Source: Marsupella aquatica
Taxonomy: Eukaryota; Plantae; Marchantiophyta
Reading direction: 5' to 3'
Assembly (NCBI GenBank): GCA_973895155.1
Contig: OZ316893.1
Location: 16,708,645 to 16,772,644, forward strand
Length of the DNA stretch: 64,000 bases
Part shown: piece by piece, positions 5,331 through 42,921 of the stretch
Position numbering within the stretch: the stretch's first letter is position 1
How the letters are laid out: each line of letters opens with the position of its first letter
Position numbers and translations under genes: made by a program
Notes under the pieces: generated by a model
Seen by the model: the letters and a program-made list of their open reading frames with translations, nothing else
Database searches by the model: none
What the model was told of the DNA's origin: nothing

Positions 5331-5348
5331 TCCCCAGTATGGTCGCCA
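5331..5348 (-). promoter_or_regulatory. primer-binding site of element A (tRNA-Arg-like)
   Basis: TGGCGACCATACTGGGGA a few nt after ...AACA; resembles the TGGCGAC..CTGGGGA Arg PBS of Tat/Ogre elements; identical 18-mer at 10321-10338. Confidence 0.85.
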
Positions 5349-6489
5349 AAAATGTTAAACGCCAACTTCGACCTTGCAATTAATGGCCATTTAACTACCT
5401 TCTCCTCAGTAATCTCGTTTAAACGATTAACCGACCTTCGAGAGGCGGCACTCCTTCTATCTCGACACAGTCCCCGTAAGTGAATCCGACCAAGTGCTCT
5501 TGAATGTCGAGTTCCGTCTTCCACTTCTTAGGTACTTCAGCCTCGACCAACACTAACCCCTCTCTATACACAATCTCAATGAACCCACACCACTCGCGGT
5601 AAGTGATCAAGCAAATCGGAATGTTCTCGTATAGTGACTGACGGGAAATAAGATGGGTGCCGATAGAACAGATCCACAGTTCCAGTGATCTTAAGGTAAT
5701 CAAGGAGCAAGACTTGTCGTCACTGCTGTCTGCGTTCATGGTTTTTAGTAGCCGTGACCTGATTAAGTCCGGCTGTCCTTTGAATCAGCCTGTCTGGCAA
5801 TTGATTTCCGGATTGTGTGGGTGACTATGACAGGGTTACCCTAAGCAAGTACCCCAGTATCACGTTTACCCTTGTATGATGGAGGTGTATGACGACCAGT
5901 GTATCGCCTTCAAAACACACTATCTCCAACCAGACACCGCTTCTCACTAGCTGTCTGTTCAACCTATACCTTGAGACACTGGCCCGTAAGATTCTGGTTC
6001 GCAATGAGACGATATTCATTCATCGTTGCGATTAACGAGTAACGACTTGCTGCATAAGGCAAATTCCTTCTCTCTCTCTCTCTCTCTCTCTAATTCGATG
6101 TTCTCCTTCACTGCTCAAGTGCGGACTTCACTCTGTTGCATTCATTCCAAACTCTCTCTTTATACTCAAAGACTACTCAACTGAGTAGGGACACTATTAC
6201 AAAATTGCTGGCATTCCTAAGGTGAGCGGAGCCCTACCTTGCCCCAGACTTCTAGCAAAAAGTGACAGAGCACCTAGCACTCCACGGCCTCTAAATACCT
6301 ATGCCTCATGTCCGTCTCTGCCAGAGGCCTCTACTACTTCTTGGGGTGCGCCAATTACAGTTGGACGACTCGCGCCTCCTCTTTGATCTCCTTCGCTCGT
6401 TCATCAAGAACGCTAACTAATGCCTACCAGAACGATGAGTGGAAGCCAAGAACTGCTGATTACTATGTCAAGAAGTTATGTCTTCCTGG

Positions 6490-7095
6490 TTACTGAACTG
6501 TGCAACGGCCTCCTCGATTCCCTTCGGTTGCGCCTGATCCGGAAGCTTCCGGACTCCCGATTGTTAATCTTGCCATATGTGCCTCGACCTCCTGACTTCT
6601 GTCATCTTCCTTGGGGTTGCTCGGTTCGCCGGCCACGATTACTTGTTCGGCGGTGATTAATCGCCACGTAATCCACTGATCGTGGCTGTTATCCCATCTT
6701 AGCAGCAGATTCCATTTCTTCCGCATGACCTTTCTACAAAGTTCTTCGATGGCCTCGCCGGTGGTGAATCGTTGGCGGAACTCTTCGCCCTTCATTCCGA
6801 ACAATTGTTGCTCCGCCGCATCCCATACATGACAACTTCCTTCTTTGATCCGAATAGTGAACATGAACATAGGCACTCCTTCTCCTAGCGACTTACACTC
6901 ATGAGCTAACCGATTCCTGCTAACGGGGGTTCCTATATTCGCCCCCCCTTGCCTTCTCTGTCGAGCTCTTGTGCCTAAGGCACATACTCTGCCATCTGCT
7001 AGTAGGCCATCGCAGCCTTCATAGCAGAACTCGACTCCTACACGACCGTTAATCGAGATGATCGTCGCCTCCCCTACTTACAGCCTTTCTATCAT
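6490..7095 (-). pseudogene. RPA70 C-terminal (DBD-C) OB-fold/Zn-ribbon-like protein inside LTR A
   Basis: MIERL*VGEATIISINGRVGVEFCYEGCDGLLADGRVC...HEC...PMFMFTIRIKEGSCHVWDAAEQQLFGMKGEEF...KKWNLLL...ITAEQV follows the RPA70 DBD-C motif order; one in-frame TAA at 7078-7080. Confidence 0.7.
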
Positions 7096-7176
7096 CTCCA
7101 CAAAATGAATAACCACTGGTCCTTGCTTACTACTTCCTAAATACTATTGGTTGACCTCTAGTTGACACTTCTAAAC

Positions 7177-9698
7177 CTAAAGAAAAACTATAATATCGCC
7201 GGTGTAATTTTTATCGTTTATAGCGTCGCTCGTCAGCTTGCCCGCCAGCTGATCCTGCTTCTCGGCTTCGGTTTGGAGCCATGCCACTTCGGCCTATAGC
7301 GTGGCTATCTCCGCAGTGTCCTGTTGGGCCCGTTCTTCGGCCTCCTCCAGGTCCTTCTGCCAGATGACAGTTTGATTCTTCAAACGGTCAATCTGGTTCC
7401 GGAGTCGTGCAATCTCGGCCTCGTTCCCAGCTTTGGCCTGCTTGGCTAGGGCGATAAGGGCGTGCGCCTTTGCTAACAAATCATCGGCGGCTACAACTTT
7501 GGGTCGTAGTTGCAGAAGCTCAGCCTCTTGAGCCGCAACTTTGTTCTTTCAGTATACGGACTCCACCCGATACCACTCTATCCTCTGAAGGGCCTCTGAC
7601 TGGGCCCGACCTTCCTTTACTGCGGCAACTAACTCCTGATTGAAGAAACAGGCTACCTTCCGGGCCATGAACTCCCCGGTATCCCGGGCAATTTGATGAG
7701 AGAAATCTCCCAGAAGCCCGTTCAGAAATGTACCCGGTACGAAGAGTTTCGGGTGGTCCAGGTTGTGCCTGTCCGGAGTTGGGCATGGGCAGACGTCAAC
7801 ACGCGCGGGGGCCGGGGCAGTGACATCCAGCCCTGGGGACGTAATGTTGGAAGGGGCTGGAGTGTCCTCCTGCAACAATGTTTGGTTCTCCGGAATAGCC
7901 ACCGGTGGGTCTTTGGGAGACCCGGGCTCGAGTAAGACCTCCGCTGTACCGACTTCTGTACTTAGCCCGGCCTGTTGGATCGCATCTACGGTTGCGATAA
8001 CCGACCCATCCGGTACCTCCTTGGTTACGACTATAGCTACTTGTGGGGGTGGGGTGGGTGAAGTTTGCGTGTCCGCTGGACTTCGGGCCTCGGGTTGGGG
8101 CCGTCTCTCCAAGGCCGAGAAAACCCACCTAGCTGGGACCAGCTTTGTAACGTTGACACGAGGAAGGGTTCGTCGATCAAACCGAGCGTACCACTCAAGA
8201 ATGATCTCGATGTGGCTAGCGAAGTACGCCTTCCCGCCAATGTACAGCGTCTTCCTTCGCCACTCCATCTCTTCATGGAATTTCTTAGCAAAGTATGACG
8301 CCCACTTCCTAGGTCGATAGTTCTCGACCTGGATAACCTGGGCGGCGGAGATCTCCCCCCGGGGTTCCATCATGTGGAGGGCGTACCTTTGGAACTCCAG
8401 TCGCTCAGCTATCTTGAGGATGAGGCAGGTCCTCATCACGAACCCGTTGTCCACTGCTCCCTCTGAGGGAAAACTCGAGGATTGGTACTTGGCTCCCTTG
8501 CCCCCGGGAGCCCGTGATTCGACTCAATGGTCACCTTCGGATAATCCGAAGATCATCTTGAGCCGTTCTTCCGTGAGGGACATATTCCTTCCCCGCAGCC
8601 AAGTATGTTGACGTGCGTTATCATAATTCTTGACGAATTCTGTCATGTCCTCCCCGTAGTACCTACAAGTGTTCCAGGGGAGAGAGGCGAGGTGCTTGAA
8701 TCCCTGAGTCTTCAGGTACACCGCATGCTTGGGATGGAGGATGTTCTTATGCACGTTTTCCCCCATGCGGTGCATTGTCACCTTGGCCACGGCTACCGTG
8801 GCCAAGGGTAACCCGGATGCAGTGGTGGGTTCCTTCCTCTTCTTCCCCCGTGACTGGCTCGGGGAGGGTGACACCTCCCCATCCTCTCGATCGGGCATAG
8901 GTAGTGCTACCGCCGTTAGTATTGGTCCCGGGGCGGCCACGGTCACCGTGTTGTCTGCTGGAGCCGCTCCTTGGGTCCGAGCATGGGGAGGGGACAATGT
9001 AGTGTTGGCCCCCTAAGTGTTTGCTCCTCTGGGCCGCCTAAGCAAGGGTGGGGTAGCCTCATCATCATCGCTAAGGTCCACAGCGTTGATAACGGAGCAT
9101 ACTTGTACTGCTGGCGGGGCGATCGGCGGTGGGGGTTGGCTAGGCTGAGACTGAGATTGAGATTGAAGCTCAGCCTGAGCTTGAGTCTGCATTGGTGCGG
9201 GTACGGGTATGGGGTCGACTGGGTCAGCGCCGGCGGTTGCGGGTCTAGTTCCCATGAAGCTCTACAGGTGTTGGTAGAAGTTCTCCGAAGCAAGTGCAGA
9301 CGACCTTGTCGAACGGGTAGTGTTGGACTCACTATTGATGATAGCCCGAACCTGAGCAGGGTGTGGTCGAAGTGATGTCGTTGCAAGTCGATTGTACCCG
9401 GGATATTGAAGACCTCATCCGGAAGCCGAAGCAATGCTTCCCAGAAACCGATATATTTGTGTTCGTTGAAGAAGTACCCAGATACCTCTGCTGGTCGGTA
9501 AAGCTCGCTCTGAGACGGGTAGTCAAAGTTAAGGATGTAGTGGTGTCGTCCTGCTAGGCGGATGGCTCTCTCGTACTCGCGTTCGATTTCGTATCGGCGC
9601 GGGTTGGCGTGTTTCAATGAGTCAGCCAAGTGTCTTCTGGTAGATAGGAACTGCGTCCAGAATCGAATGGCCGAACTGGAGAGGATTGTGTGCAACAT
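7177..9698 (-). pseudogene. long LTR-encoded ORF: N-terminal domain, PQ-rich linker, PMD/Transposase_32-like domain, coiled coil
   Basis: ORFs 9013-9255, 8524-8997, 7549-8454 and 7294-7479 share one frame separated by single stops; 8943-9698 joins through one inferred frameshift; ATG at 9698 lies ~100 nt after TATAAAA. Confidence 0.75.
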
Positions 9699-10165
9699 TC
9701 AGAGGAGATAGTAGTGGCGACTTAGAGCAAACGAGAGAGTTGGGGTCGAAGCTGGCGCGTGGACTGATGGACTGGTGCACTCCAAAGGGTTGGCTCCCTT
9801 TTTATACCTTGAGGGCTTGTCGATTCTCCGACATCTCCTCGTTGCCTATAGGCTGAACCGTTCACGCTTGTAGTGTACCGGCCACTCCGCCGGTCTGAGT
9901 CACAGTGTGTCAGTGGATGCCTCCCGAAGTTTGTTATACGGACCCGAGGGAGGGGCCCCTCCACGCTCGTAACCCAGGCGTGCGAATGGCGACGCGCCGC
10001 CAGCCCAAACATGAATTCCCCTTATTGACTAATGATTTCCTACTCATAATGGCTACCTAAATACTGTCGTTATGCTAATCATAGCGGCCTAAGATACCCC
10101 TAACGCGCGTGCTAGGCACAGTTTAGACCGAATTACTCATTACTCGCCGTACCGGTGGCGTCACA

Positions 10166-11336
10166 CCTCTTGGAGACAACAAGTTGTTCTGCCCGCATCT
10201 CTGTTCTCCTTCTCAGCTTCAATCTCCTCTTTTCTTATACTCCGCATCATTGTCATGACGGTGTGGGAAATCCGATCAATCTCGTCGCTATCACCCATCT
10301 TGCCTAATCGCCCCAAGGTATCCCCAGTATGGTCGCCAATGTCGCGTGGACTGAATGCAAGGGTCACCTCGGGAAAATGGATTGTTTCTGGCTGTGATCC
10401 AGATGAGTGACAAACACAATTCGGGGCCCAAACTCAAACACTTTACTTTCTGGAAATCTCATTATCAATACAATGGGTGCCCTTGGGCGGGTCACTCATG
10501 GAAGTCTGATCTCTAACCCTTCGGCGGGCTACTATCTATCTTCCATCGGGCTATCATCCACTCAAAGGCTATCAAGTCGGAAAATCCACGAAATCCAATT
10601 ACTCAAGTGCTCAAGCTCATAACTCATAATCTCTAGCTCGCATCGCCAACGATCCAACACTCAGGTTTGCTGGTCCACAATCGGTAGCACCCCAATCTTC
10701 AATCCAAATCACCATAAACGATCGACTCCCCTGGACTGAGCTGAAGCCCAGCCCTCAAATACACCTCAGAAGCAGCATCCCCGCCCGATGAGTCACCACC
10801 AGGCGGGTTCAAAACTCAACAGCCAGACTCTTGGTTGCCAGAAGACGAACCAATAGCCCTTCGCATTCCAATCGCAACCAACTCCCAACTCCTTAGCTTC
10901 CGCATGCCCAAAACTCATCAGAAACAAAACACCAATCGTCACTCAGAGTCAAGCTTGAAGTCAAAATGATTCGACTCCAAACCATTTGCAACTCACAAAA
11001 AATGGAACGCCAATCGACTCTCAGAGTCGAGCTTGAAGTCAAAACAATTCGACTCCAAACCATTCACAGTTGACAGAAAACAGAACGCCAATCGACTCTC
11101 GAAGTTGAGCTTGAAGTCAAAACGATTCGACTCCAAACCATTCGCAGCTCACAGAAAATGGAACACCAACCGACTTCCTCATTCCTGGTCGCGGCACGGA
11201 AATGATTCGTTGCGACACCGGCTTAGGGCTAATCGGGACCACTACACACCTCCTTGCCCGAACCCTCACCCTACTAGTGGTCGTGGTTGCCCTAGGGAAC
11301 TAACTTGGGTTTAAGGCCCGGGTTATGGGCGCGACA
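10166..11336 (-). mobile_element. Ty3 element 'B' 5' end: 997-bp LTR (10340-11336), PBS (10321-10338), start of gag-like ORF (10298 down to 10166)
   Basis: Perfect 7-bp terminal inverted repeat TGTCGCG...CGCGACA; PBS TGGCGACCATACTGGGGA 1 nt after the LTR; ORF MGDSDEIDRISH... is cut by element A. Confidence 0.85.
10933..11175. repeat. 78-bp tandem repeat x3 in U3 of LTR B
   Basis: Units begin caatcg at 10933, 11011, 11089, with a partial unit at 11167. Confidence 0.9.
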
Positions 11337-22921: not shown

Positions 22922-23372
22922 TGTAAGTAGTGGGTAATTCCAAAAGTAGGAAGAAACTGAATTTTTTTTAAATTTTCTATGGTGTTTAAACTATAATTAT
23001 TGCTAACATAGCGGAGATAGCATTCTGTCTACAAGTTATGGGTTCCCAATTCTAAGTTACGAGTAAACTCTTGTTTACGAGTTTACTAGTTACTAGTTAA
23101 TAGTATCCTGGTTTACAAGTTTACGAGTTAACGACTGTTACGAGTTTACTAGTTAAGGCTTTATGAGTTGTGCCTTGCGAGTTGGCGACCGGTGATCGCG
23201 ACGTCTCACGGCTACCTTCAACGGGACTTAGCAACGGGATGGCGAGCGCATATTGAAGTAAAGGCAAGCTAGGTAGACCTCGGGTGCTCACTCCTGACTA
23301 AATCCCTGCCTCCTCCATTGATTCTCTTGGCCTCCCCATTTCTTTGCGCTACTACAAGAAACAATTTGAGCT

Positions 23373-24659
23373 ATGGCTGGCCTGGGAGCTGATGAGCAGT
23401 ACCGAGTTGACGCATTGGCAATTCCTAAGAGCGTAGTCGCTCAAATTCCACAAGCGCCCGATAGTTATGCGAATTTACAAACTTCATTACAACAGCTAGG
23501 TCTGGGGCATCTACTTGTCGTTCCTTGGGACGTAGAACTCGACTCATACTTGCAAGATTTTGTGAAGGGGTCGCTGCTTGCTCCTGAATTTTGACAGACC
23601 ATTCGAGCTTGGCCAAGTCTATGGACTGTGGAGCAAATTGCTCGTGCCTTCCGCTGCCCTTCAGAAGGAGAAGGATTGTATTCAAAGAAGAAAGATTTGT
23701 CTACTCCCTACTTTTCTGGGATTCACAATCTCACAAATGGCTGGAATCTAACACAGTGTACTTATCCAAATTTGAGAGTGCTTCTGGAATTTCTAGTGCC
23801 AACTTTACACCCGAAAAAGCCAACCATTTGCCCAATGGCTTTGGTTAACACAATTGTAGCTGCACACAATGGAGCCATCCAGGTGAATTGGGCCTTGTTA
23901 ATTATCAATGTGATGAAGGATCAGGTGAGGAGCATGAAGGCAGGTAGACCTACCTATCTGCAGGTATATCTGTCTCAGCTCTATCAGGCTTATGATTGTT
24001 TACATCCAGAGGAGAGAACAGAAAGAGGATTACTCCTGATCGAACTAGGCATTGAAGAAGAAATTGGTGTAGAAGAACCAGTGGATGCTATTCCCCTGGA
24101 TTCTAATGATCAGAATATGGATGTTGATATGGATTTGGAAGATGCCTCTGTGGGTGAACTTGAAGTTTCACCTGCTCACAATATGGAGTTGGTTCGACAT
24201 CCTCTGGTTAACTTGGTGTATTCAAGAGAAGTCAACGTGGAAAATCAACCTGGAGCTGAAAAAGCTAAGGACGTCTCTGAGCAACACGAAGTTGTTGCTG
24301 ACCCGACCACTACTGTCATCCTGAGGGTTGATCCGACTACTTCTTCAAAGGCAGAGTTCAACCAGCAACTTATTGATAAGTTAATTGCTCTTTTTGGTTG
24401 TGATGATGTGGAACTCTATGATGTTGTCTGTAATTTAAGATCAGAGGTAGTCAGCTTATCATCCCCATTTCCAGATCAATTAACTCCTGTCAGGACCACC
24501 TCTCCTATTGTGGGATCAGCCTTAGAAGAATTCGTTGCTCTCAGTCCTGTTGCACCACCAAACCTGCCTGTAGAGCCAAGTGAACCTGTTCCTGTGACAG
24601 AGGATGTAAATTATGCTGCCATTGTAAACAACTTACTGAGTGGACATGCTACAGTGTGA
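23373..24659 (+). pseudogene. LTR-encoded ORF with PMD/Transposase_32-like domain and acidic/Pro-rich tail
   Basis: 23373-23594 and 23628-24659 are in frame across one TGA; LGHLLVVPW...DFV...IARAF...NGWNLTQC...LEFL...LHP...VNWA. Confidence 0.75.
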
Positions 24660-24672
24660 GCCATAGGAGATT

Positions 24673-25708
24673 ATGTCCGTTGTTAGCCACTTAACTCAAA
24701 AATCTCCAGTTATTAAAATTCCCCATCATCCAGATCCTTACTCATACAGTCCTGATTCCAACTATGAACCCATTGATGGACCCATCTTCACTCGGGGTCA
24801 CTCTGAAGATCCTTATGTTAGACGGGATCTCTTTGATGACTCTGACCCGCCTTCGGATAATGGCACTTATAGATCTTATGACAATCCCCTTGAGTCATCA
24901 CCAAGGCAAGGGTTTGAAGATGTTGATACAGCTTTGAGGTCAAACCCAAACCTAGTAGCAGTGGTTACGTCCTCTACTCAGACTCCCAGGAATGCTACTA
25001 TTGAGAAGAAGTATCCTAGGCTTCCCCAGGCTCAAGTACAGAAGTATGTAGACATCTGTAAGGTTATGCATGCCAACATGCCACCAGTTGGAGAATTCTG
25101 GAGATACTATTACTTAAAGAAAACTGAGGCAAGCTACATTTTTGACCTGAAGTATCATGGGACTTCTTGATTGGAAATGGCCCAGTTTGATGAGCACTGG
25201 ACTGACTCTGTCTACTTCCGACCTATTCTGGCAATGATGTTGCTGCAAGGTGATGTAGAAGTGGAGGATCCTGACCTAGTCCTGGCCTACTTTGGGAATT
25301 TTGCAGCTTATGTTCTGGACTTCGTGCTTACTTTTCTCATGCAGAGAAAGAAATCAACTTCTTGGCAGAACAACTACATCCCTAAGGAACCTAAGGTTAT
25401 GCTGGTTGACATTGGCTGATAAGCAAAGAATCTGGGATAATGTCACCACTCACACTCTGGGCAAGTTCAACCGGTACTTTAAGGATGTTTGTTGGAGACT
25501 TCGACCTTTCTACTCGAAGATGATGAGAACTGAGGATTTCATGGCCTATTATCCCCAGGTTCATGCTGCTACCTGCAATCACTATGATGTGATTGGAATT
25601 TATAGGGAGGCACTCCAAATAGACTCTTGTTATTTGATGAGGAGAATGCCAGTGATGTATCCAGATAGGCAACTGAGATGTTTGCCCTATTCTCGAGGTT
25701 CACCATGA
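24673..25708 (+). pseudogene. second LTR-encoded ORF, unknown helical domain
   Basis: 24673-25170 and 25171-25419 in frame across a TGA; probable frameshift into 25292-25708; aromatic-rich globular sequence. Confidence 0.6.
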
Positions 25709-25921
25709 CAGGTTGAGCTCATGGAGGTTGTCCAATCAGGCACTGTTGCTTTTGTGGAGCTTCTCAAAATCAACGACATTCAACACCGAGACTAAGGCAG
25801 AAGTCCTAAGTGTTTTTAGTTAGTTTAGAGTAGTGCATCTTGTCCTATTTTTAGAAATTTGCTCTATGTTACAAGGAGGACACCATAGGCAAGAGTTGCT
25901 CCAACCTCCAACTTCACTAAT

Positions 25922-28462
25922 TGTCACGCGATTGACATGGGTCTTAACACCAAAAACGTCACTATGGGTGCCAAAACCATCTCCTTGTACTTGAGGATCA
26001 CGAAGGGATGTTGTGAAGGCCGGTAAACACCGATTTATGCCCTTAACACCAGACTATCATAGCAAGACTCTATCACACATCACCCAAGCTCAATCCCAAG
26101 GAACCAAGGTTGGGGATCAGATCTGCGCTCATGATAGTTCTGGTGAGAAGGGGTCTTCATATCGGGCCCGTACACACAGGGCCTAGCGCTACGGTGCGCA
26201 TAGGTCTATACGTATGCTTACTATCATAGGTATGTTTCTATTCTGCCGCCGGAATGTACCCATAAACCAGTGACTCCTGACTGATTCCCGGCTTAGGGAC
26301 TTCTAAGCCATTGCCCCACCACTCTGCCATTCCACTCTTAGCAATCAGAGCTATGACAATCCTCACCCAGCCCGCTTCAATGCACCCTGTACACCTCTCA
26401 GTGGCGCTGCTAGTCCCATCATACACTCAGATTGCCTCACACACACACACATCCATGAGAGAAATGAGGCCTGAGAGGAAAACTCAATTAGATTCAAAGA
26501 TGTGCACAATAGTTCACTGAGAACACTTGATCCGAACACTAGGGCCGAAGGCTGTCTCCTCCAGATTGTGACGTGCTTGCCCCGCAAGCCCCGTGCTTGC
26601 CATGCAAGCTCAATCCTGAACCTGAGCCCGGCTCACTCCAGATTGCGACGGCAGATTGGACTCGAACCAATCCCGTACTTGCCTTGCAAACTCAATCCTG
26701 AACTCAACCTCCTTCATTGCACTTCATTCTTGGGGACACGTACAGATCTCACACCTCCATTTCAGAATGTCAAGTTACGCATGCACAGTTGACTCGACTT
26801 CAAAGCTGGTACCAGGCCTAACGGCGATCTACCCCAGACTATAATGAGGCCCGGCCTCACGCTTGCCCTGCAAGCTCAGCCCTGGCCATAAATCCCTTAG
26901 TGCTCTCCACTAGACAAAGGCCGGGACTCCCCATGGATCACGTAGCCTTGCCAGACTAAACTGTAAATGCTCCTCCTGCTGCCCCTCAATCAGTATCTCA
27001 GCCTCCCTAATGTGCTCACCGCAAATCACATTGAAATCCTCCCCACAGTTTACACAATCACCAATACATCACCTATCACCAAGGCTCTGTATCGGGGGAA
27101 AAGAACCCAGTTGTGTTGCCTACTAGAAAGAGCCACAATCCAGCTTGCAAACCTGGCCAACTGTTGTTGTGAAGCATGGCTGATTACTCCCTAAGTAATA
27201 GCACAACCAAGCTCTCCCCAACACATAGCTTCCAAGCCCAACCTTCCTTGCACAGAGCTCCTCCCTGCTGCTCAATCTACGTGAGATCACACAACTGAAG
27301 TTCCCCCCTGCCTCTACCGGGGGGCTGCTCTATATACTTTCTCATTGAGCCCAAATGGGTGGATGCTACGCTGCTGGAGCCCCATCCCAGCCCTAACAGA
27401 GCCGCCACTATCTCTAACTATTGAACCCTAACTCGCAGCTTTATTTCTATCTCAAATTGGCTATGTACTTTGGATTTGGCCCTCCTCCATGGTTTTTGCG
27501 AGCTTGCGCCTCCTCTCCCGATTTCTCTATTCAACCATTTGCTACGTGGATAGCAACGTCCTCTTTCCAACGAGGTCAATTATAGCCAATTTGGTCAAAT
27601 ACACATAGAGTTATGCCCCCGCAACCGAGAGGGGGTACTCACTGCTGCGCTAACCCGAGTTACATAGCTAACCCGAGTTCGGCTAACCTAGCTATCCTAT
27701 CTAACCCGAGTAGAGCTAACCCGTGGTCTCGGGTTAGGCCGCTACCCGCTATCCGCTATCCGCTAACCTAGGCTAAGCTGAGCCCAAACCCGAGCTTACC
27801 TATGCTAACCTGAGCCCGAGTTTAGGCTAACCCGAGTTCAGTCTAACCCGGGATCAATCTAATCCGAACCCGGGTTAAGCCTAAGCTGAAGCTGTGCTGA
27901 CCTGAGCTAAGCTGAAGCCGTGCTTACCTGAGCTAAGCTGAAGCTATGCTGACCTGAGCTAAGCTGAAGCCGTTCTTACCTGAGCTAAGCTGAAGCTATG
28001 CTGACCTGAACTAAGCTGAAGCCGTGCTTACCTGAGCTAAGCTGAAGCCGTGCTTACCTGAGCTAAGCTGAAGCCGTGCTCACATAAGCTAAGTCGTGGT
28101 CGAGCTTGGGTTAACCCGAAACTGAAGCCGAATCCGCTAATTCCGGCCACAAGTTAACCCGTCACACTAATCAGGCCGTATCTTCCTTAATACACCTTCG
28201 TTTCTCGAGTGTTTTATATCGATTTTACTCGCCTTGACCAGATCTTTCCAATGCTCTTTACAGATCCGGATTTGGTGACATATTGAAAGAGATATGGTCA
28301 CCGACCACCCTCGACATAGCTTTTATTTCCTTACTCTTAACGCCATGATTGCCCTTATTCTTGCCATCTTGCTAATTGTTATGCAATATCAATAGCTACT
28401 CCTTGCATACAGCAGCCTACTTAATCAGATCATAGAATAAGGACCATGTCATCGGTGTCACA
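25922..28462 (-). mobile_element. 2541-bp non-coding solo LTR 'S2' inserted in the copia 3' LTR
   Basis: TGTCAC...TCACA termini; TSD ctaat at 25917-25921 and 28463-28467; orientation inferred from a TATA-like tatatag and a motif shared with LTR C2. Confidence 0.9.
27880..28095. repeat. 26-bp tandem repeat (~8 copies) preceded by degenerate gctaacccgag motifs
   Basis: Unit cctgagctaagctgaagccgtgctta seen directly. Confidence 0.9.
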
Positions 28463-29503
28463 CTAATGATCATAATCTTGGATACACTTGTGGGGTTATA
28501 GGGAGGTGGTTATAACCACTCCTTAACCCATCTACCTAGGGTTAAATCAAGGGTTAACTTTAACTTATAACACTCCCCCTTGGTTGATTTCAGTATAGCT
28601 AAAAATCAACCACACCAAGGGAAAGTTTAACCCGTATTGGTACCCATTTATTTGTGGTTTGGTCTCATCAAAACCCTTCTTCTTACTATAAGGGAAAGAG
28701 TGCCACAACCATTACATGATATGGGGCCAAATATTTCTAAATGTCAGATATGTTATTCTAATGCGAACTGCACTAGTCTAGACTGAGTAATTTAAAGTTA
28801 TTCAAAGTTGAATTTGAAGTCTATAAACGAACAGTTTTGTACTGCTAAGTATCGTTTAATGTGGGCTTACACTTCGTGTGTATGTGTGTAAGGTTGTTTT
28901 TTTTTTGGGGGGGGGGGGTTTGTAAAGTGTCGAGTCTGGCCAAAGGTCGCAGCGTGTTTCTCCCAACAGAGTGCTTCTTGGGTGGCAGGATCGATCGGGT
29001 GGGGCTCCGTTTCATCTTTGCTGCATTGCCGTCTTGCATCGTTCGCTGCACTGCACCACTGCTTCGCATCGGGCCTCAACATCCTCGTCTTTCGCTATGG
29101 TTCTTCTATCATTCTTGTAAGTACTGGTTCTCTTTCCTCTCGCTTTTCACATAAGTCGGCTGCTACAGCTCTGCTTAGTCGGTCCCACAGAAGACGGTGA
29201 ATCTGGACCAACTTAAATCTGAGGATTGTGTCGAGTAGCCCAGTGAGATTCAAGATTTTGAGATCAAGAATGTATCCTCTTTTCCTCCCTTTCCCTCCGA
29301 TTCATTTCGCATTGTTAATTCCTTGTCTTTGATTCTGTAGTTGACTGGAGGAGGTACGGGAGTCATTTCAAGCCGCAGGGTGATTGTTGTTGGTTGACAT
29401 TGGTTCTACTGTGCCAAGGGTTCGCGATGGTGCGCTTTTCTGGAGGGCTCTGCATATTTTTGATAAGTACTTTTGTCTCCTCCTTTGCTGGTTATGCTGA
29501 TTC

Positions 29504-32500
29504 TTATCGTAAGAAATCTCTCAACTGGCGCATTCCTATTCCCAATGAGTGTTCTTTATGAAGTGCAGGGGGTAAGGGTTTCGTGAATATATCAGCTATG
29601 TTTTCCTTCGTTGATATCCACTAAACCTGGATCTTGTCTCCATGTTGCTCATGTGTGTAGAATAGCTTCGGTGCTATGTGCTTTATCCTGTCTCCCTTGA
29701 TAAAGCCTTGTGTGATTTGGTCCACACAGGGTCTGTTGTCTTCATAAAGAATAGTAGGCTTGTCCAGCAACGGTTTACCTGTGCTCTGGTTGATGTGGTC
29801 AATTAAACTTTGGAGCCATACACATTCTCTTGTTGCTTCATATAATGCGATGATTTCAGCATGGTTAGACGATGTAACTGTTAATGATTGTTTCGTGCTC
29901 TTCCAGGAAATCGCTGTGGTTCCTTGCAGGAAAACGTATCCCGTCTGGGACTTCGCATCATCTGGGTCGGACAAGTAGCCGGCGTCTGCATATTCTATGA
30001 GGGTCAGGTTTGCATTCTTGGGGAAGAATAGTCCCATATCCGCAGTCCCCTGTAAGTACCTGAATACTCGTTTTATTCCATTCCAGTGCCTAATTGTTGG
30101 CTGTGATCCGTGTCGTGCAAGGAGGCTTACCGCAAAGCTTATGTCGGGTCTTGTTTGGTTTGCCAGGTACAGTAATGCTCCAATCGCTGAAAGGTAGGGC
30201 TTCTCAGGTCCCAGTACCTGCTCATGTTCTTGGCATTTCTTGAACATGTCCTTTGCTGGATCAAGTGAACGCAGGTCCATTGGAGTGCTCACAAGATGGG
30301 AATTCTGCATGTTGAATTGCTTGAGAATTTTCTTTGTGTAAGTAGACTAATTAATAAGAATGCCTTTATCAAGGTGATTGAACTGAATGCCTAAGCAGTA
30401 GCTCGGTATTCCAATATCTTTCATTTCAAATACTCTTTTAAGTGTTGAGATTGTCTGTTCTGTTAACTGCTTTGTGCCGAAGATATTAATATCATCTACG
30501 TAAATTGCAAGTATTACAAACTCTGTGCCAAGCTTCTTAAGGAACAAGCAAGGCGCAATTTCTGCATTTGTAAATTGTAAAGCTAGCATTTCATCACGAA
30601 AGCGTTTGTACCAGATGCGGCCGCTCTATTTCAAGCCGTTTATGGATCTCATTACCTGTACTACATATGCTGGCTACTTTCTGTGTTTATTCAACTGTTT
30701 GGGTGGAGGAAGTCCATGCTCTTTTGGGGATGAATCTCCCTGGTTGTTTTGGTACCATTTTAAGGTCTCAGTAGGAGTAGCCTTTTCTTTTAACTCAGCA
30801 GTAGGCTGGTTTGCTTTAAGATGTATCCCATGGGTATTGCGGACTGTAGGTCCGTTTTTACATTTTTCAGTAATTTGCTTAATCCCTGATTGTAGATCTG
30901 GGTGTAAGCTGTTTTTCTCCCCCTGAATATGGAACTGTACTCTTGCGATTAGTTTAGGGGGTGCCTACATATATATTTGAGTGTCCATAATGCCATACAA
31001 GTATGTCGTCACTACGTCCATCAAGTGCATTACAAGGTTATAAGTCAATGCAAATGCAATAATGTAGCGGTATGTTATGGAGTCCATGACAGGCGAATAA
31101 GTCAAGTCGTAGTATCTGCCATAAATCTGTGTATATCCTTTGGCCACCAATCGAGCTTTGTATCGGATGACCTCTCCTTTGGCATTCCTTTTTTGTACAA
31201 AGATGAATTTGTATCCCGTTAAGCTCATGTCAGGTGGGGCCTTCGATATTGGGCCAAAAATGTGTCGTTTGATTAATGAGTCTAGCTCCGAGTTGATTGC
31301 TTCCTGCCATAGTGGCCAGTCGTCTTGGTTCTGTGCCTCCTGGATAGTTAGTGGATCTGGGGTTTTGTTAGTAATTTCTTGTGCGATTAATGAGATAAAT
31401 TGGTCATCGACTCTGGTGTGTGCTCGCTGCCACACTTTTCCAGTATGCATATACTGGATGGAGATCTCCTCATTATCCTATGATAGGTTTGTCTTTGGTC
31501 CTTCGTTATTCCTATTTTCATTCTGTATCCCAATGTTGGGGTTTGTATTCTTCTTTTGCCTGGGTCTTATATCTTTGGATCCGAGGGGGCGGCCCCTTTT
31601 AGCTCTAGGTGGGGCCTCTGTTGCTTTGGTTTGCTACGGTTGAATTTGTGTAGGTACATTCGCACCTTCGATGTGGGAACGAGTTACAGCAGCAGCGTCG
31701 TTGAATGCATCTGGTAAAGTATTCAGCATTTGGTTTAAATGTAAAACACGTCTTACCTCTTCATCTGCTTGCCTCGTCCTTGGGTTGTTAAGCAGTAAGT
31801 CTTTTGTTTCCCATTGTAACTGTGAGACTCTTACTGAGTCTTCTTGCTTGCCAGATGTGAGGTGTGGATAGATGTTTTCAAAGAAGTGGCAATCCTGGAA
31901 TCTCGCTTTATAAACATCTCCCGTTGTCGGTTCTAAGAACCTTATAATAGATGGGGAGTCGAAGCCTACATAAATCCCTATTTGGCATTGGGGACCCATC
32001 TTGGTTCGTTTAGGGCCTAGGATGGGTACTAAGACTTGGCATCCGAATGTTTTTAGGTGGGATAGATCTGGCAATAATCCATATGCAAGGTGATGGGGAG
32101 AGAGGGAGTTAAAGGATGAGGGCCTATATTGTAGGAGGGATGCTGCATGGAGGATGGCATGTCCCCATGCCGTCGCTGGTAATTTAGTTTGCATTAACAT
32201 TGGGCGTGCGATAAGTTGTAATCGTTTGATGACAGACTCTGCCATTCCATTTTGTGAATGGACATATGGGACAGGGTACTGAGCTTCTATCCCAGCTGTG
32301 ATACAGAAGTCATTGAATGTATTAGAGGTAAATTCTCCTGCTCCGTCTACTCGCAGTATGCGGATGGGATTTTCCGGGAACTGAGTCCTCAACTTCAGTA
32401 TATTTACAAGGATTCGTGAAAATAGTAGGTTTCTTGTGGATAGCAGCGACACTTGTGACCATTTAGATGATGAGTCAATCATAACTAGAAAAAATCTAAA

Positions 32501-34204
32501 TGGGCCACTAGGTGGTTCAATGGGGCCGCAGACATCAGCATTCAGGTGTTCTAAAAATTTGGGGATTGCATAGACTGTCTTTGTGATTGTTGGGCGTGTG
32601 ATAAGCTTACCTTGTGAGCATGCAATGCAGGGTTGTTGTTGTGCAGGTGTTTTTGCTACTGGTGGGATTCCCACTGAATCTTTTATAATTTTCTGGTACA
32701 TTGTCGTACCTGGGTGTCCCAGCCGGTTATGCCAAGTGATGAATATACTTTGTTTGCTAGGTTCAGTACAATGTGATTGTATTCTGGTGACATATAATCT
32801 TGGTGGTTCGGCTGAGAATGTTTCTTGGATCTGTAATCCTGTGTCGGTTTTCTTTGTGATACGGAGGACTTCTCTCTTATTGTGTATGCTTGTATGAATG
32901 TGAAAGTTATTTGCCCTGATGTCATGGAAACTGATCAGGTTTCTGGTGGCTGTAGGTGCATAGATTGCTGATTCAATATGGAGGACTATCCCTCTTGGGA
33001 ATATGACAGTAGCTGGTCCGTGGCCATGTTCTATCTGTTTCTGGCCAGAGATTGTGGTGATAGTTCGGGATGATGGTGTGATGTTTTTGAAATGTTTTCT
33101 TTCTTTTAAAATGGTATGTGAGGTGCCGCTGTCTAGTATACAAATGGTTGGGTCTTTTGGGTAGGTTGTACTGTTGCCATAGGTAGTGGTGTGTGCTTCA
33201 GGTGAAGGAGGGTCTGTCACATATTGTGTTAGGTCTTGTGGTAATTCGAGAAAATTTCCCTGGGGTTCTCTCTGGGAATTGTTGATACTATTCTGATAAA
33301 GTCTGACCAGGTGGGAGGGGGCCCTACAATCTGTTTTGGCATGTCCAAGTGTACCACATCGAAAACATTTGGTGGAGTTGTTTCGTTTATCTGATATGCT
33401 GTTGTAGTTGGTTCTTCCGCGCCCTCTGCCTCTGTCATTTCCTCAATTCTGCCATTGTTGCCGGTTGTTTGCAGGATCATACATGCGTCCTCCACCCCTT
33501 CCTCTTTGGGATTGGGTTCTGCCTCTTCCTGCAAAACGTCCACCTCTCCCCCTGAAAGTACCCCTCCCCCTGAATCCTCTTTGATTTTGACTATTATATT
33601 GTGATTCAGGTTTTGGTATAGGTGGGAGGGTACATGGGGGTCTTGTCTTTGAATTTTCGAGGAGTAGTATTTGGTGCTTTTCGGCTAATAGCATATGTGC
33701 GATTAGTTGAGAGTATCTTTCAAATGCCATGTTCCGGTATTGCGCAGCTAATACCAGATTTGCTGCATGGAATGTTGACAGGGTTTTCTCGATCTGCTCC
33801 GCATCATCTACCGGTTGCCCGCAGACCGCGAGTTGTGCTACTATTCGAAACAGTTCGCTGTTATAGTCGGCAACGGTCTTGTGGTCTTGGACCCTCAAAT
33901 TTATCCAATCATGTCTTGCAGCTGGTAGAGAGATTAGCCGCATATGATCAAATCAAAGTTGCAATGATTCCCATAACACTCTTGGATTATATTCATTTAA
34001 GTATTGTGTTTTCAAGGCATCTGCTAAGTGATGCCTGATAAAAACGAGTGTCTTTGCTTTCTCTTGAAGTGTGGGCCCATTATCAGTAGTTATAGATTCT
34101 TGTAGCGTTTTAGCGGATAAATGTGCCTCCATGTCTATAGACCATGTTAAATAATTCGATCCGTTAATAGCTAATGCTCGGAAGCTAAGTTTTTCTAGAG
34201 CCAT
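29504..34204 (-). pseudogene. copia gag-pol (gag, protease, integrase, RT, RNase H) with several stops
   Basis: ILDSGTSHT, WHNRLGHPG, ADVCGP, QNGMAE, RYKARLVAKG, IYVDD, YADAGYLSDP, KHIAPKLF. Confidence 0.95.
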
Positions 34205-35993
34205 TTTGTTCTATTAATGTAGAATAAGACTTATCCTTTTCTTATGTTGATATTGCAATTCCGATTAACAATTCCGATCAGCAATCATGGATGGATCAAT
34301 TGAAGTTATTGGCCTGTGATTGAGTTGTTTGTATGCTCAATTGTAAGTCAAACTTCCCTTTGTAGGCCAGATCCAAATTTGAAAGGTCTTGCTCAAAATG
34401 TTGTCTTTCCCAATTTCTTCCCGGTTCAATTTGAGAGTATCCAGAGGTACAGTCTTCAATAATCTGTGCGTTGTGTTTGTTGCTTTCGGGCGATTCCAAT
34501 CTCCTTTATTGAATTTGAATGTGGAATCAACTTCGGGAAATCCATCCAATTTCAATTTGTCCTGGTTTCAATTTCATTCTGATTTTGGGAAATCATATGC
34601 TGGATCTGTAAGGGTAGTGTATTGGGAGAAAGTATGATGGGAATTTTCTATTCCCTCGCTTGGCCTACATTCATTGCTCAAAATGAGACGCGTTGATAAC
34701 GTGTTACAAGGAGGACACCATAGGCAAGAGTTGCTCCAACCTCCAACTTCACTAATGATCATAATCTTGGATACACTTGTGGGGTTATAGGGAGGTGGTT
34801 ATAACCACTCCTTAACCCATCTACCTAGGGTTAAATCAAGGGTTAACTTTAACTTATAACACTCTAGAGCTTTAAAAGTCATGAAACCTTTTTAGGATGT
34901 AGTCTGTACTTAGGAAAGCCTTCTGGCAAAATTGGAGGCTTTTCTGAGCTACGAGTAGGAAGTTAAAAATAGTTGAATTTGCCAAGTTTTTACTTTTGTT
35001 GCAATTACGAGTTACGACTTAGTTAGACTTTTAAGAGTTTAAGAGTTTACTAGTTCACAGCTTTTACTAGTTTACGAGTTTACACTTAGCCAGATTTCTG
35101 GCTTTTCACTTACTGAATCGCCATTTTAACTTTTTGAGAGTTATGAAGAGGCATGTCTCTTCGACCCTGTGACCTCTTACTCGGTAGATTTTTACTATAA
35201 GATAGCTCTACCACTAGTGTAGTTGATGGTTAAGTTGTGCATTTTTGCCTCTCCCTCTTGTTAAGTCTATTGATTCTAAACCTATGAGTTCTAAATCAGG
35301 CTTAATAACAGGAGAGACTTACCTCCTTCTTGTGTTTCTACACTTATCATAAACACGGGAAGTAAAATTGCATTTGTAAGAAATCTTTGGATCTTGTGAT
35401 GACAGATTCCTCCTTGGTGACTCATTACAAATTCCTAAGTTCTTAAAGTTAACTCATTGAGTTTATGTCTTAATGAATTTGATGGATTTTCTTTCATGAT
35501 ACTTAGTACCATCTAAATGTTGAAGTAGCTACCTTTTAGATTTTATTTGAGTACCACTTAGAAAGAAAGGATAAGACATGTTGACGGCATTTTAAAAGGT
35601 ACTCTAGTAAGCAGTTTAGATCTGAAAAGCAAACGTGGATTTGAATCCTTACGTCTTTTCATTTTGACTAATGTCTAAGGAGCAACCTTGGTCAATTCCA
35701 GACTCCCTTAGCATACTTTAAGATATTTTCCAAGTGTTTTGTTAATCATTCCCTTTTCATTAATTTATGGTTATACAATGCTGAGTTACCATTAAAAACT
35801 ACTCACCGCTGTGGAGCGATCTTCAAAATACCTTAGTAAAGTAATCAAACTTGATTACTATGTGTGGAAAACATTTTAAGTCTATTATTGTTGTTTAAAT
35901 CTATCAAACCAACCCCATGTCGTTCTTTACGGGAACGAATACCGAGTTGGAAGACCATAAAGTGTGCTTTTCGGTTTTCCCTGGCAAACTACA

Positions 35994-37890: not shown

Positions 37891-38206
37891 CAGGTCTTTC
37901 CCTCTCCTCATCATGACTGGGAACCTTGGGCCCTTGTCCCTTGGGTTCCGGACTTGAGGCTCCCACGTACATCCGCACCCCTGGCTCATTTTCCAACCTA
38001 GTTCCCTAGCCTTTGCAGCCCCAGCAAAGGGATCTGCTCTTGTGGGTCTTGCGGTGCCTCCCTCCCCAACAATGCCGTGTACAAGTGCCTGTGCCGCAAT
38101 TGCCGGCTTCTCCTTTTGCAGCATCTGAAAGAGGCTCTGCATAGCTGGTTGCTGCATCGGCATGGATTCCAGCGTCCGCCTAAAGATTTGCACTATCATG
38201 GGGCTG

Positions 38207-41200
38207 TGTGGTGCGTCCCATGGCTCCCCAAACCCAAGAAACCCCCCTGCGCAGGCCGATTCCCGTAGGTTTTGTCCTCGACGAGGCCGTTTCCGCGGCT
38301 TAGCGGCATGGGACGCTGCTAACCTCCTTCTACTACTACTATTAACATTTTACACACATATACTGGACAGATCCTTCATCGGGTCATGAGATATGTAGCC
38401 GGCCTAATCTAGGCCTTCCCTTGTATTCCCCTCCTTTTCTTTAGGTATATTTGGATTCCGCCGCCGGAATGATCCCCAATTGGCTTGGTTAAGCCGCTAA
38501 GACCTCTCTCAGCTCGACACATCCAACTCTCACTCCCTTGCTTACTTCCCTTCATCTATTAGTTGATATATGTGGGCACTCTTCACACAAGTTAATGCGA
38601 CACACAAATAGCAAAATGACTCCTTCTGACTGAGTTATACCATGCACTTGCCATACAAACAGTACATCTCATACACAAGTTCTGCGAACTAAGCCGTGAG
38701 GCCAACTCTATTCAGCTCTTAGGCATGAGGAAACATGAATATACACAAGGATCACTGTATAACTAACCAAGAGCTTCTTTTACTACTTGATCCCAACCCT
38801 GCTGGTGCAACTAAAAACTTGCTAAAGAAGAGGCCCTGGACTCCCCGCTGCCCAGGTACTTATCCTGGTAGTGGATCCGCCAATTCTTAGCAGCGTAAGC
38901 TTAATCTATCCTACCTGTAATCTACCTAAGTACAATCTACCTAGTGTTGCTCCTACCAGTGGATCCGCCATCCCACTAATCTAAGTGTCAGGGCCGTCTC
39001 CTGGTCTTGATCCTAATCCTAAACTTGGAGATCTGAGCCCGCCCTGCCCACTCACGCCTCCTACCTCCATGTCCGCCCTTCCTAAAAGGAACGGCGCCCT
39101 TGCACCGTCACGACACCGGTGGTGGATCCTCAATGGACGCCCCCAATGCTTCCCCCGCAGCCACTGCCGTCGGTCCTTCCTCTGACAGATTACCTGCCCC
39201 GGACCGAGTCAACTCTTCATCGGCCTGATTGGGTCCACCTTCGGCTTCGGCATCAGTATCGGCCACGGCCTCCCCGGCTATGGTTTCCTCGGCTGGCTCT
39301 AGTGGTGGGTTTGCTTCCACGGCTTTATCAATAGTTGTCCCGGCCTCGGCCTTGCCATCCCCACCTTCCTTGACAGGTGGATCCATTGTCGTGACCATGC
39401 CGGAGGTTGGTGTTGGGTTTACCTCCTTGGTCACGACGGCTTGAGGAGCCGTAGTACTCCCTGACCCAAAAGGTTTCTGCTTCTTCTTCTTCTTTGGTTC
39501 GGCAGCTGGCCCCTTCCCCTTGCCACTTACCTCCGGCACCGGTGCGAGTGTCTCGGCTTCTCCTTCGGCCAGTACTACACCAGGTAACTTGGTTGCCCCA
39601 ATTGGAGTTGGTCCTGAGGAAGCCAAGAACTTAAATACTACGGCCTGTTTCTTCAGCCGCTCTGTTTGGTTGTCGGCCCACCGCTGTAAGTTCTCCATCT
39701 TCCGCATGCTTTCCTCCAACTCCTCCTGCAATTCATCCAGGTCCTTCCTTGCCTCCTTCAGCTCCTTTTGGGCTTCCTCCAACTCTTTCTTTAAGGTAGC
39801 CCTCTCCTCCTGGGTTGCTCTCAGCTCCTTGTCGAGCTCCGCCACGACCTCAGACTCCATTTTATTCATCTTGGCATAAGTCTGGTCGAGCTGGTCGTCT
39901 TTCTCGCGGAGGTCGGCCTTGAAGCTGGCCGTCATGGATGCGAGCTCCTGCCGCAACACGATAATCGCCTGATAGGATTTCCCTAACTCGGCCTCCTTCT
40001 GCTCAAGGGCTCCGCGGATATCCTCGAGTTCCCCTTTCAACGCCCTCTCCCTTCTCTGAGTCTCCGCCATGGCCCGGTTGTTGGCTGCTATGTGGGCCTC
40101 CTCTGCGTCTCTCAGCTCTCGCTTCCACTTCTCCCTATCTTTGACCGCCTTGGCCAACTCTCCTTGGCTTTGAGTCAGTTTATCCTTGATAATCTGATTA
40201 TCAGACTGTGCGGTATCCAACTGCCCCTGCATGATGTTTAGCTCATGCCGTTTAATCCATAGCTCATCTTGGGCTTTCTTGGACGCCTTCAGGTCTTTTA
40301 CCTCGGCTTCCCTCTCCCTAAGCCGCCGAATGACCTCGTCCTTCTTGCTTCTCTCCAAAGCCACCGCTTCTTCTAATTGGTGCTTCTCCAATATTTATCT
40401 CCCTCTGGAAAAAGGGTCCCTGCTCCAACTCCTCCCCAAAGATGCTGAGCGCAAGTTCCCCACACATCTCCCCGTACTCCATGGCTCTATCTTTAGCATA
40501 GGTGGAGTAAGAAGAAGTCATCGGCATCAACCACCTCGGCCTCTGTTCCCAAGCCGCCTTGCGGATTTCTTCTATGGTGGCAAGAGGGTTGCTTCTTTTT
40601 TTGGCAAGCTGCCTGATGTCCTCCGGCCAATCTCCTCCTGGTAAATCTTTCTCCCTAGCCAGGGCTGCCTTCTCTTCCTCTCTGAGTCGCTCCTGAAACT
40701 CCTGTGCCGTCTGTCTTATGCCGTCAAAACTCGGGGGAGCGACATCTGGTGGGGGGGACTCGGGGCTGCTCTGTTGGGTGGGGTCCCCTCGAATTACTCT
40801 TGGAAGAGTGGGGATGAACCTGCCATAGGTCCTTATTCCTGGAACATGATGATCCGACCCATAGCCGGAGTTATCATTGCTATAGTCCTCCACCGCCTCC
40901 TCCACTGCTTGGACTCCCGGCTTCCCCCTCTATTCTCCTGGTCCTGCCGTGAACACAACCCCACAGATCATGGGTTCTGGATCCTCCGGCTTCCATGTTG
41001 ATCTCATCTTCTCCCTGTCGTGACCAAGGGCCTCGGGCTGCTTCTCCTCGGCTTCGGGACTTGAAGCTCCTACATACATTCGGACTCCCGGCTCGTGTTC
41101 CGGCCTCCTTCTCTCCTTGGCCCCGGTAAAGGGGTTTTCTCTGGTAAGTTGGCTAAGACCGACTTTGGAAGTAGTATTCTGTGCTGGCCCCGTTGCCGTT

Positions 41201-42921
41201 GCCATTCTTCTTTCCTTCTCCAACAATTTTAGCAGATTCTGCATGCCTGGTTGCTGCATCGGCAAGTCCTCATTCCTCGGCCTAAACACCTGCTCGATTG
41301 TAGGACTGTCGGGCTGGGTCGATTTCTCTGTTGCCGGCCTCGGTTTCGGAAGTTCCTCTGGTGCCCTTGCCTGCAGGGGCAGTACCGGGGAAAATATCTG
41401 GTTTCGGGCATACCGGCACAACAGCGACATGTGATAACCAAGCCGGGACACGCTTCCCATGCCGATCACCAGCTGTTCCTCCTTCAAGATCTTCTTCAGT
41501 TGGTTGAGGAGGTACCCGTTGTAGTCCCGGCTTGGGTCTGGCTCTCTGCCAGGTAGACCTGTGCCTTGCCGATCTCTGCCCTCGGCAGGTTGCAATGCAT
41601 GGTCACCCGCAAGAAATCGATCATCTCTTCGATGTGCGGGTTGGTGCAGGTGTTCCGGAAGAAGCCATTCTTTGTTGATGGCCCTGGAAACGACCGGAAC
41701 TCCTTGTTTGGCAAGGTCTTCCTGGTCTCTACCTTGGTCTTATTGCCCATCGGCAAGCCAAACACTTTGGCAATCACCCGGGGAGTGAGATAGAAATCCT
41801 TCCCATACACCCTTGTGAAATTGGTCTCGGGCTCCCATGATCCCACGAATTTTAATAAGTCTGAATCCGGCACCTCCGGCTTCAGCCATGGTAATTTTAC
41901 GAAGGCTTCCAAGCCGGATCCGGCCATGAAGCCCTGGTACTTCTTGGTCTGCATGGCCGTAAAGCATGCATCCTCCTCCCGTGCAAAATGCAGTTGCACC
42001 TCTTCTGGTAGGGTCGCCGCCCAGCCTTTCCAGGTGTCATCCTTTGTTGGAATGGCATTGATGGGATTGACCTCCTCCTCTTTGGCTTCCGCCTGCCTCC
42101 TGCTTCCCTGCTCTGCTGGCTTCCTTGGTGCCGCTGACCTCGTTCTTTTTGCCGGGGTGGCCTCTTTGTTTTTGTTTCCTTTCCTCTTCATCTCGGCTAC
42201 CGTGGATGTTTCTCCTAGCACGGTTGCCTTTGTCCACCCCTCCGTGCTACCCTTCAACTCCCACTGTATGTTGTTGCAGCGGTTGATGGCTTCCCGAATG
42301 CCGACAATCCTGTTTTCGCAAAACAGAAGGTCGTCAAGCTGATTGGCAGTAGGAGTCCACAAGAACTCGGCCTTGATGAATTCTCCTCCTAAGAAGGCAG
42401 ATTTCTGCAGCTCCCACAGTCGAGCTAGCTCTTGCCATTCTCGAGCTGCTCTCTCCGATTCTTCGTCCTCGTAAGTCCCAATGTACTCAGTTGCCCGTTC
42501 AAACAGGCATCCCCAAAAATGCGCCGCTTGATTGACGTTGCTCATACCCTCCTTGAGTCGTTCGTTGGTATCTGCTCCCGCCCAGAGTGTTTGTCTAAGC
42601 AGTTGACAGTAGTTGGCCTCCCGTAGTTGTCTGCCCAGTTCGTGCTTGCAAATGAGACACCATTCCTCGTGAGCTGTCCTTACCCCTCTCCTCCTCTGGT
42701 CTTTCCTACCGTTGGTTACCCCTAGCCGCTGACACTTAGTGCACCCTAACCCTAATCGTATTCTCTCCCCCGGCGTCCTTACTTCCGGCCTCGGCCCGGG
42801 TTCCATAGTCACCCTTAATTGTTTATATTTTTCTCATTCTTGTAACTATACTAAGGTGTTTCTAGGGTACACTTCTGTTTTCCCACTTAACCGGCCTAGT
42901 GATTCCTGGTTAGGCATCACA
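38207..42921 (-). mobile_element. giant coding solo LTR 'C2' (4715 bp)
   Basis: Inverted termini TGTG(A/G)TGC; TSD ggctg at 38202-38206 and 42922-42926; no gag/pol and no internal direct terminal repeats. Confidence 0.88.
39108..42806 (-). pseudogene. ~1200-aa LTR-encoded protein: Cys/His motif, PMD/Transposase_32-like domain, long coiled coil, low-complexity tail
   Basis: ORFs 41496-42812, 40930-41595, 40318-40905 and 39108-40391 link through two inferred frameshifts and one in-frame TAG; CTKC..HEEWCLIC at the N-terminus; heptad E/K/L-rich region 40390-39650. Confidence 0.8.

Follow-up and report, generated by a model that had tools for sequence, protein, structure and literature searches.

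Within a 64,000-nucleotide stretch of the liverwort Marsupella aquatica (GenBank assembly GCA_973895155.1, contig OZ316893.1, positions 16,708,645 to 16,772,644 of the forward strand; hereafter the window), we found four repeat units of TG..CA type that carry one conserved protein family under purifying selection. The units are probably giant long terminal repeats (LTRs), two of them solo and one heading a Ty3 element, and structural modelling predicts that the family product likely folds like the DNA-binding anti-silencing protein VANC21. The combined reading, namely that these are giant LTRs in which a gene under its own promoter encodes a chromatin protein of VANC fold, and that this protein would bind the family's own non-coding motifs and oppose silencing, has in our estimate a probability of about 60%.

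A first-pass annotation of the window had proposed three units of ~4.8, ~4.1 and 4.7 kb, and their ends were confirmed, giving 4,813, 4,072 and 4,715 bp for unit 1 (5353..10165, minus strand), unit 2 (plus strand) and unit 3 (38207..42921, minus strand), respectively; a fourth, older unit had been missed. Unit 2 is interrupted by a nested Ty1/copia element (25867..34861, minus strand, duplication CTCTA) that is outside the gene-carrying family, and its net length is the sum of a 5' piece with the leader and a broken gene (22922..25866) and a 3' non-coding piece (34867..35993). The same 8-bp motif array occurs in both pieces, which therefore belong together. All three units have TG..CA ends with a short imperfect inverted repeat (8 of 10 bases inverted in unit 3), and the 5-bp target duplications reported for two of them hold for unit 2 (CGAGT on either side) and unit 3 (GGCTG). 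Duplications of this length accompany most plant LTR elements (93.4%, as reported in PMC6317226); alone they are weak evidence, with 275 TGT..ACA pairs spaced 1-15 kb apart in the window carrying an exact one. Unit 2, however, cuts the integrase zinc finger of a chromovirus (..HVQSYYS|CQKNR..) and unit 3 cuts the gene of an older relative (..KPPGS|PMIVQ..), and in both cases the frame resumes over one copy of the duplication. Because the flanking frames are split exactly, these are true insertions, and chance is ruled out as the source of the two duplications.

The host of the unit 3 insertion is unit 4 (minus strand), which runs leftwards from 44540 to 42922, where it is 76% identical to unit 3 over 1.6 kb at the 5' end, resumes on the other side of it (37895..38206) and ends abruptly at ~37895 in chromovirus pol, its 3' end lost. 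The sequence to the left of unit 3, considered as a possible gag, is this remainder of unit 4. Despite the divergence, unit 4 retains the TG end, a TATA box at +94 and the gene start, so that the TG-TATA-gene layout kept in units 3 and 4 must have been copied through at least two insertions. An empty-site joint (38201 to 42922, with a 5-base overlap) was present in contigs of all four public sequencing runs; these contigs are ~85% alike and therefore represent other copies of the host family, not an allele. Other copies have independent junctions at the same termini, 41423 to 38207 (run X2) and 44542 (run X1), and contig depth is high over all of unit 3 compared with its outer flank. Other copies of the unit 3/4 family likewise appear to be inserted in their own family (contigs at 41423 and 43558), a possible case of self-targeting. 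Short direct terminal repeats, named beforehand as evidence against LTRs, were sought by self-match and found in none of the units, the terminal 8-12-mers occurring only once, which rules out non-autonomous elements with short LTRs (terminal-repeat retrotransposons in miniature or large retrotransposon derivatives).

The link to a retrotransposon comes from unit 1, the likely 5' LTR of a Ty3 element (element A). Its 3' end (..TTAACA) is followed by TTTT and, 4 nt past the CA, by a primer-binding site (PBS)-type sequence, TGGCGACCATACTGGGGA (5331..5348, minus strand, read directly), and then by gag, beginning ~0.9 kb after the PBS, reverse transcriptase (RT), RNase H and integrase (1..4429, minus strand), where element A leaves the window; the succession of unit, PBS and gag-pol in the first-pass annotation is thus borne out. 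Contig depth drops past the unit boundary at 10165, and in the longest contigs the 3' 1.8 kb of unit 1 is 1.4-1.8 times deeper than the interior of element A (640-646 versus 375-455 in run X3, 384-388 versus 215-221 in run X4), a comparison that is a hint only, since depth is not copy number. The probable identity of the units as LTRs is supported by the integrase-type ends and duplications, the lack of terminal repeats, the depth of unit 3, the PBS after unit 1 and the depth hint for its 3' part. The Ty3 label, initially given to all units, is from linked sequence valid for unit 1 only, and extends to units 2-4 through protein kinship. The RT of element A shares 47-53% identity with Riccia proteins and, for the most part, 41-44% with eudicot ones, and it groups with Riccia elements with modest support (91/84) in a tree (33 rows, one dropped as a short match) without labelled references. 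RNase H runs directly into the integrase zinc finger, with no additional RNase H (aRH) between them. Element A would thereby fit the Tat groups without aRH reported from liverworts (PMC10508981, PMC13468544).

The genes of the units belong to a single family, as the shared motif series in their open reading frames (ORFs) had suggested. Local alignment scores of the cores were 138 for units 1 and 3 and 74 for units 2 and 3, neither reached in 1000 shuffles, and 42 for units 1 and 2, reached in 20 of 1000. A profile built from outside relatives alone, which had themselves been found with unit 3 as query, matches units 1 (E = 1.5e-41), 3 and 4, and weakly unit 2 (E = 3e-6); it has no further match in the window. 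The unit 1 gene (7223..9698, minus strand) comprises an N-terminal domain (~9360-9698), a VANC-like core (8185-8778), a linker and a coiled coil cut at ~7223; that of unit 3 (39111..42545, minus strand) has the N-terminal domain, the VANC-like core (41392-41990), a linker and the coiled coil (39111-40394); in unit 2 the broken gene starts at ~23370 on the plus strand, with a core match at 23694-23939. The order of N-terminal domain, linker, core, second linker and coiled coil is common to units 1 and 3 and the outside relative P0149, and the N-terminal domain is shared by both units, P0134 and P0149, with uneven pairwise support. The conserved start of the unit 3 gene is ~0.38 kb from the TG; an ATG at +116 in unit 3 was rejected as the start, since unit 4 does not preserve it in frame. 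The dN/dS ratio (nonsynonymous to synonymous substitution rates) between units 3 and 4, a check proposed in the first-pass annotation, was 0.16 over 328 domain codons (bootstrap 0.11-0.24), and over all seven aligned blocks it was 0.19 in frame versus 1.10 and 1.36 in the shifted frames, the blocks coming from tblastx, which favours conserved stretches.

HMMER returned 18 hits from 1.84 billion representative proteins, three of which (P0125, P0128 and P0135) were dropped as repeat-protein artefacts; of ten that were looked up, seven are true relatives, and both of those with a named organism come from the liverwort Calypogeia fissa. A word-indexed search with the unit 3 protein gave no match among 6,610 candidates and a profile search three among 7,989. 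Locus searches of metagenome contigs (61 pattern matches) and viral contigs gave no family relative, and none of nine metagenome loci with the PBS pattern matched the family profile (best E = 0.17), two of them resembling LTR elements with only ~0.5 kb upstream. A PDB sequence search with the family protein gave no match.

Two natural unbroken relatives, P0124 and P0133, which are 15% identical to each other, were modelled structurally. The P0124 model (40% identity to unit 3) had a pLDDT of 70, and the core of the P0133 model was mostly above 75. For both, VANC21 ranked first among 48,161 solved chains, with Z = 7.9 (root-mean-square deviation (rmsd) 5.6, 218 residues aligned, next chain 3.4) for P0124 and Z = 6.9 (rmsd 4.4, 169 residues aligned, next chain 3.1) for P0133, and both models cover VANC21 residues ~290 to 534. 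Fold comparison with viral proteins gave no match, and look-alikes in the Atlas (ATHILA, Transposase_32 and DUF1985 clusters at 0.82-0.85, all below 0.9) are leads only. VANC21 has been reported to bind a 9-bp motif that forms arrays in the non-coding parts of VANDAL elements, and to remove methylation (PMC5735166). Its domain is likewise reported to be similar to MAIN/PMD, with structural likeness among the VANC, MAIN/PMD and DUF1985 folds (PMC13547354; 10.1101/2024.09.27.615353); the same two reports present models of VANC and Athila proteins as coiled-coil oligomers. The chromatin or anti-silencing role, at first a guess, has thus gained structural support in the form of a top fold match obtained twice, but with moderate scores and a Foldseek signal that is weak or absent.

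A VANC-target-like array is present in unit 2, where TTACGAGT occurs six times (reached in 0 of 300 shuffles) and the 8-bp motif lies in a single orientation in both non-coding ends (23073-23154 and 35030-35083). The predicted binding target for the unit 2 family would be the TTTACGAG/GTTTACTA array. The target duplication of unit 2 (22917-22921 and 35994-35998) equals the end of the arrayed motif, which may be chance. Units 1, 3 and 4 each have a TATA box close to the 5' end (at +95 in unit 3). In unit 1 a second TATAAA, with a (GA)n run behind it, lies ~810 nt before the 3' end. Telobox-like ACCCTAA repeats are kept in the 5' leaders of unit 3 (42743-42755) and unit 4 (44357-44369); in plants, motifs of the telobox type have been associated with the recruitment of Polycomb.

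These features can be combined into a mechanism. Expression from the TATA promoter near the 5' end would yield a protein whose PMD/DUF1985-type core lies between an N-terminal domain and a C-terminal coiled coil. Through this core the protein would recognise short motifs in non-coding LTR DNA of its family, and once bound it would oppose DNA methylation or Polycomb marks in trans, keeping the element's own copies from being silenced. If the units are LTRs, the gene likely lies in U3, where reverse transcription would copy it to both ends of the element and recombination between LTRs would leave it behind together with its promoter and target motifs. In its most specific form, which we advance tentatively and consider rather doubtful as a whole, a liverwort-type Ty3 lineage would have put a VANC-fold sequence-specific anti-silencer into the U3 of 4-5 kb LTRs, so that each insertion carries two copies and each solo LTR is a cassette of promoter, anti-silencer and target that de-represses the family in trans.

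Several observations weigh against this reading, and the rival explanations built on them overlap, so that our estimates for them do not sum to one. As to architecture, no LTR pair around gag-pol was seen in the window, which element A leaves, and no polypurine tract or PBS loose end was found at the unit 3 termini among the matches listed (24; 4,207 others). Unit 1 has a seam at ~7223, where depth differs more than 20-fold between the bins on either side, the gene side being deeper; most related copies diverge from it at this point and continue with other coiled-coil sequence, and no contig bridging the seam was found among the matches listed. The seam separates the gene part from the PBS-adjacent part, and the gag-pol link, which comes from unit 1 alone, is therefore weakened: unit 1 either represents a minor subfamily in which the 3' part was exchanged or is an isolated chimera. 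The depth step and the missing loose ends would be explained if the units were not LTRs. On that view unit 1 would be a chimera in which a repeat bearing the gene is fused to the 3' 1.9 kb of the true LTR of element A, and units 2-4 would be either deletion relics of larger elements or non-autonomous TG..CA elements moved by a Ginger-like integrase of retroviral type. We regard this as improbable: the ends are only short imperfect inverted repeats with no terminal direct repeats, the layout has been replicated in two diverged insertions, 5-bp duplications are typical of plant LTR elements, and unit 1 shares TGT..ACGCCA between its two ends and has no TG start at the seam, two features that also favour a subfamily origin for it. 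If the units are LTRs, the 5' TATA could still be the main promoter, with a U3 of ~0.1-0.4 kb and the gene in R/U5. The gene would then be expressed from the leading part of the genomic RNA, as are the 5' extra ORFs of Ogre or Retrosat2. In units 3 and 4 the box at +95/+94 is indeed the sole canonical TATA, and the last 0.9 kb of unit 3 contains no clear second one, but the second TATAAA of unit 1 with its (GA)n run makes a plausible U3/R border. A strong-stop DNA of 4.6 kb would moreover be unusual, and we think a gene in R/U5 unlikely; a gene in U3 remains our preferred arrangement.

As to the protein and its function, every copy in the window is broken by stops or frameshifts, so that the long sense ORF first ascribed to each unit stands as a conserved family but not as an intact frame; other copies differ at several of the breaks, and some lesions look private. 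Unit 2 is the weakest member, its profile match lacking the N-terminal domain. A comparison with PF20167 and PF10536 had been proposed earlier; Pfam (PF10536, PF20167, PF03078 and PF09331 included) gave no match for the unit ORFs at E 0.1 or for 15 relatives at E 1. Both Z scores are moderate, within the range that may reflect a common arrangement, and the two models were built on overlapping alignments and are not fully independent; Foldseek placed VANC21 only at E = 1.5 (TM 0.38) for the P0124 model and did not have it among the 16 matches listed for P0133. Motif enrichment was absent from units 1 and 3 (reached in 283 and 31 of 300 shuffles, respectively), leaving one of three units with dense same-orientation non-coding motifs. 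PMD-fold host proteins are reported to work in silencing as well as against it, MAIN and MAIL1 having first been described as silencing factors (PMC5418596). The same architecture might serve a different chromatin function: the protein could steer integration, damp the expression of its own element in a MAIN-like manner or act as a coiled-coil scaffold; a shared fold shows no function, and units 1 and 3 are without a target-motif array. Against this alternative, the sole solved match is an anti-silencer of a transposon, PMD-C proteins are reported also to counter Polycomb silencing (10.1101/2024.09.27.615353), and motif arrays of a single orientation occur at both non-coding ends of unit 2. 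We consider another chromatin job unlikely, if still deserving of weight, and a counter-defence (anti-silencing) role of the LTR-borne protein, which the models suggest, nearly an even prospect.

The family has partial counterparts in several known systems. Ogre (PMD, PF10536), Retand (Transposase_28) and Athila ORF1 (PF03078/PF20167) likewise combine a Ty3 accessory gene with a conserved globular domain and a coiled coil, and LTRs of up to ~5 kb are known among plant non-chromovirus Ty3 elements (PMC6317226). Their extra ORFs, however, are described as internal, 5' of gag or 3' of pol (PMC7264820, PMC6317226, PMC11728184, PMC3485330), whereas the gene described here is enclosed by the TG and CA of solo-type units; Ogre and Retand have the extra RNase H that element A lacks; and the protein likeness is limited to the weak Atlas matches (ATHILA and Transposase_32), with no Pfam match here. 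The rice elements Retrosat2 and RIRE3 are similar in their giant LTRs (>3 kb), TGTCACACCC-type ends, many solo LTRs and extra ORF0, but belong to an unrelated lineage, and their ORF0, which was searched for separately from the LTR, is placed upstream of gag-pol (PMC3485330). VANC21 (from VANDAL, Mutator-like; PDB 9lnk/9lnj) shares the coiled coil and is the top structural match of two family models, at 9-10% identity; binding and demethylation are here predicted only. VANC proteins are reported as products of dicot DNA transposons (PMC13547354) with short non-coding motif arrays as targets (PMC5735166), unlike the present TG..CA units with 5-bp duplications, no transposase, liverwort relatives and an array in unit 2 only. 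The host PMD-C proteins MAIN, MAIL1 and MAIL2 are reported to share the DUF1985/VANC fold (10.1101/2024.09.27.615353; PMC13547354), and their likeness to the family comes through that report, without direct comparison; unlike the unit-borne family, they are encoded by angiosperm host genes. We found no plant LTR described with a gene inside it; subscription papers lay outside the search, and the supplementary extra-ORF lists of PMC6317226 may bear on the point.

Genes inside LTRs are known from animal retroviruses with LTRs near 1 kb, as in sag of mouse mammary tumour virus and other retroviral U3 genes, with two copies per provirus; their proteins are unrelated to the family described here.

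Further features of the window include, in the lower-depth part of unit 1 (6493..7222, minus strand), a TATAAA at the seam followed by a second ORF with one stop (6493-7137), which has no Pfam match and a best PDB match at E = 1.4. It contains spaced Cys/His residues and a 'VWD..AEQLFGM' stretch, with splice-like signals nearby, and may resemble the C-terminal OB fold of RPA70. The chromovirus pol split by unit 2 (21743-22921 and 35994-37893, minus strand) encodes RNase H, integrase, SH3 and a chromodomain, and is interrupted by a fragment of a long interspersed nuclear element with zf-RVT (~37000-37750). Inside the copia LTR lies a 2.5-kb TG..CA insert (25922-28462, duplication CTAAT) with 26-bp and other tandem arrays, likely a solo LTR, in which the family profile finds no match. 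Elsewhere, exons resembling those of a host gene, with a BRCT domain and a variant PHD finger, are found at 11830-13711 (plus strand), and three collinear open frames for a charged protein at 61146-62528 (minus strand), the one scanned having no Pfam match. Also present are 78-bp and 67-bp tandem arrays (10912-11175 and 58886-59107), a CACTA Tnp2 fragment (19527-20039) and a second decayed copia pol (55118-57641).

What the extra ORFs do in plant LTR retrotransposons has been stated to be unknown (PMC7264820; PMC6317226), and the VANC21-like fold makes the function of one such family directly testable, through binding of motifs in its own LTR and loss of silencing marks specific to the family. 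With a gene inside the LTR, a solo LTR takes on another meaning, in that the usual removal of the element by the host would spare both the accessory gene and its promoter. If the reading is true, the LTR-borne gene would explain the great length of these LTRs, as well as the absence of the family from annotation in which LTRs count as non-coding, and VANC-type counter-defence would extend to retrotransposons and to early land plants. The origin of PMD genes, in retrotransposons or in the host, was left open in PMC5418596, and the family bears on this question; if the reading holds, it would point to a single retroelement weapon as the ancestor of Athila ORF1, Ogre PMD, MAIN and VANC.

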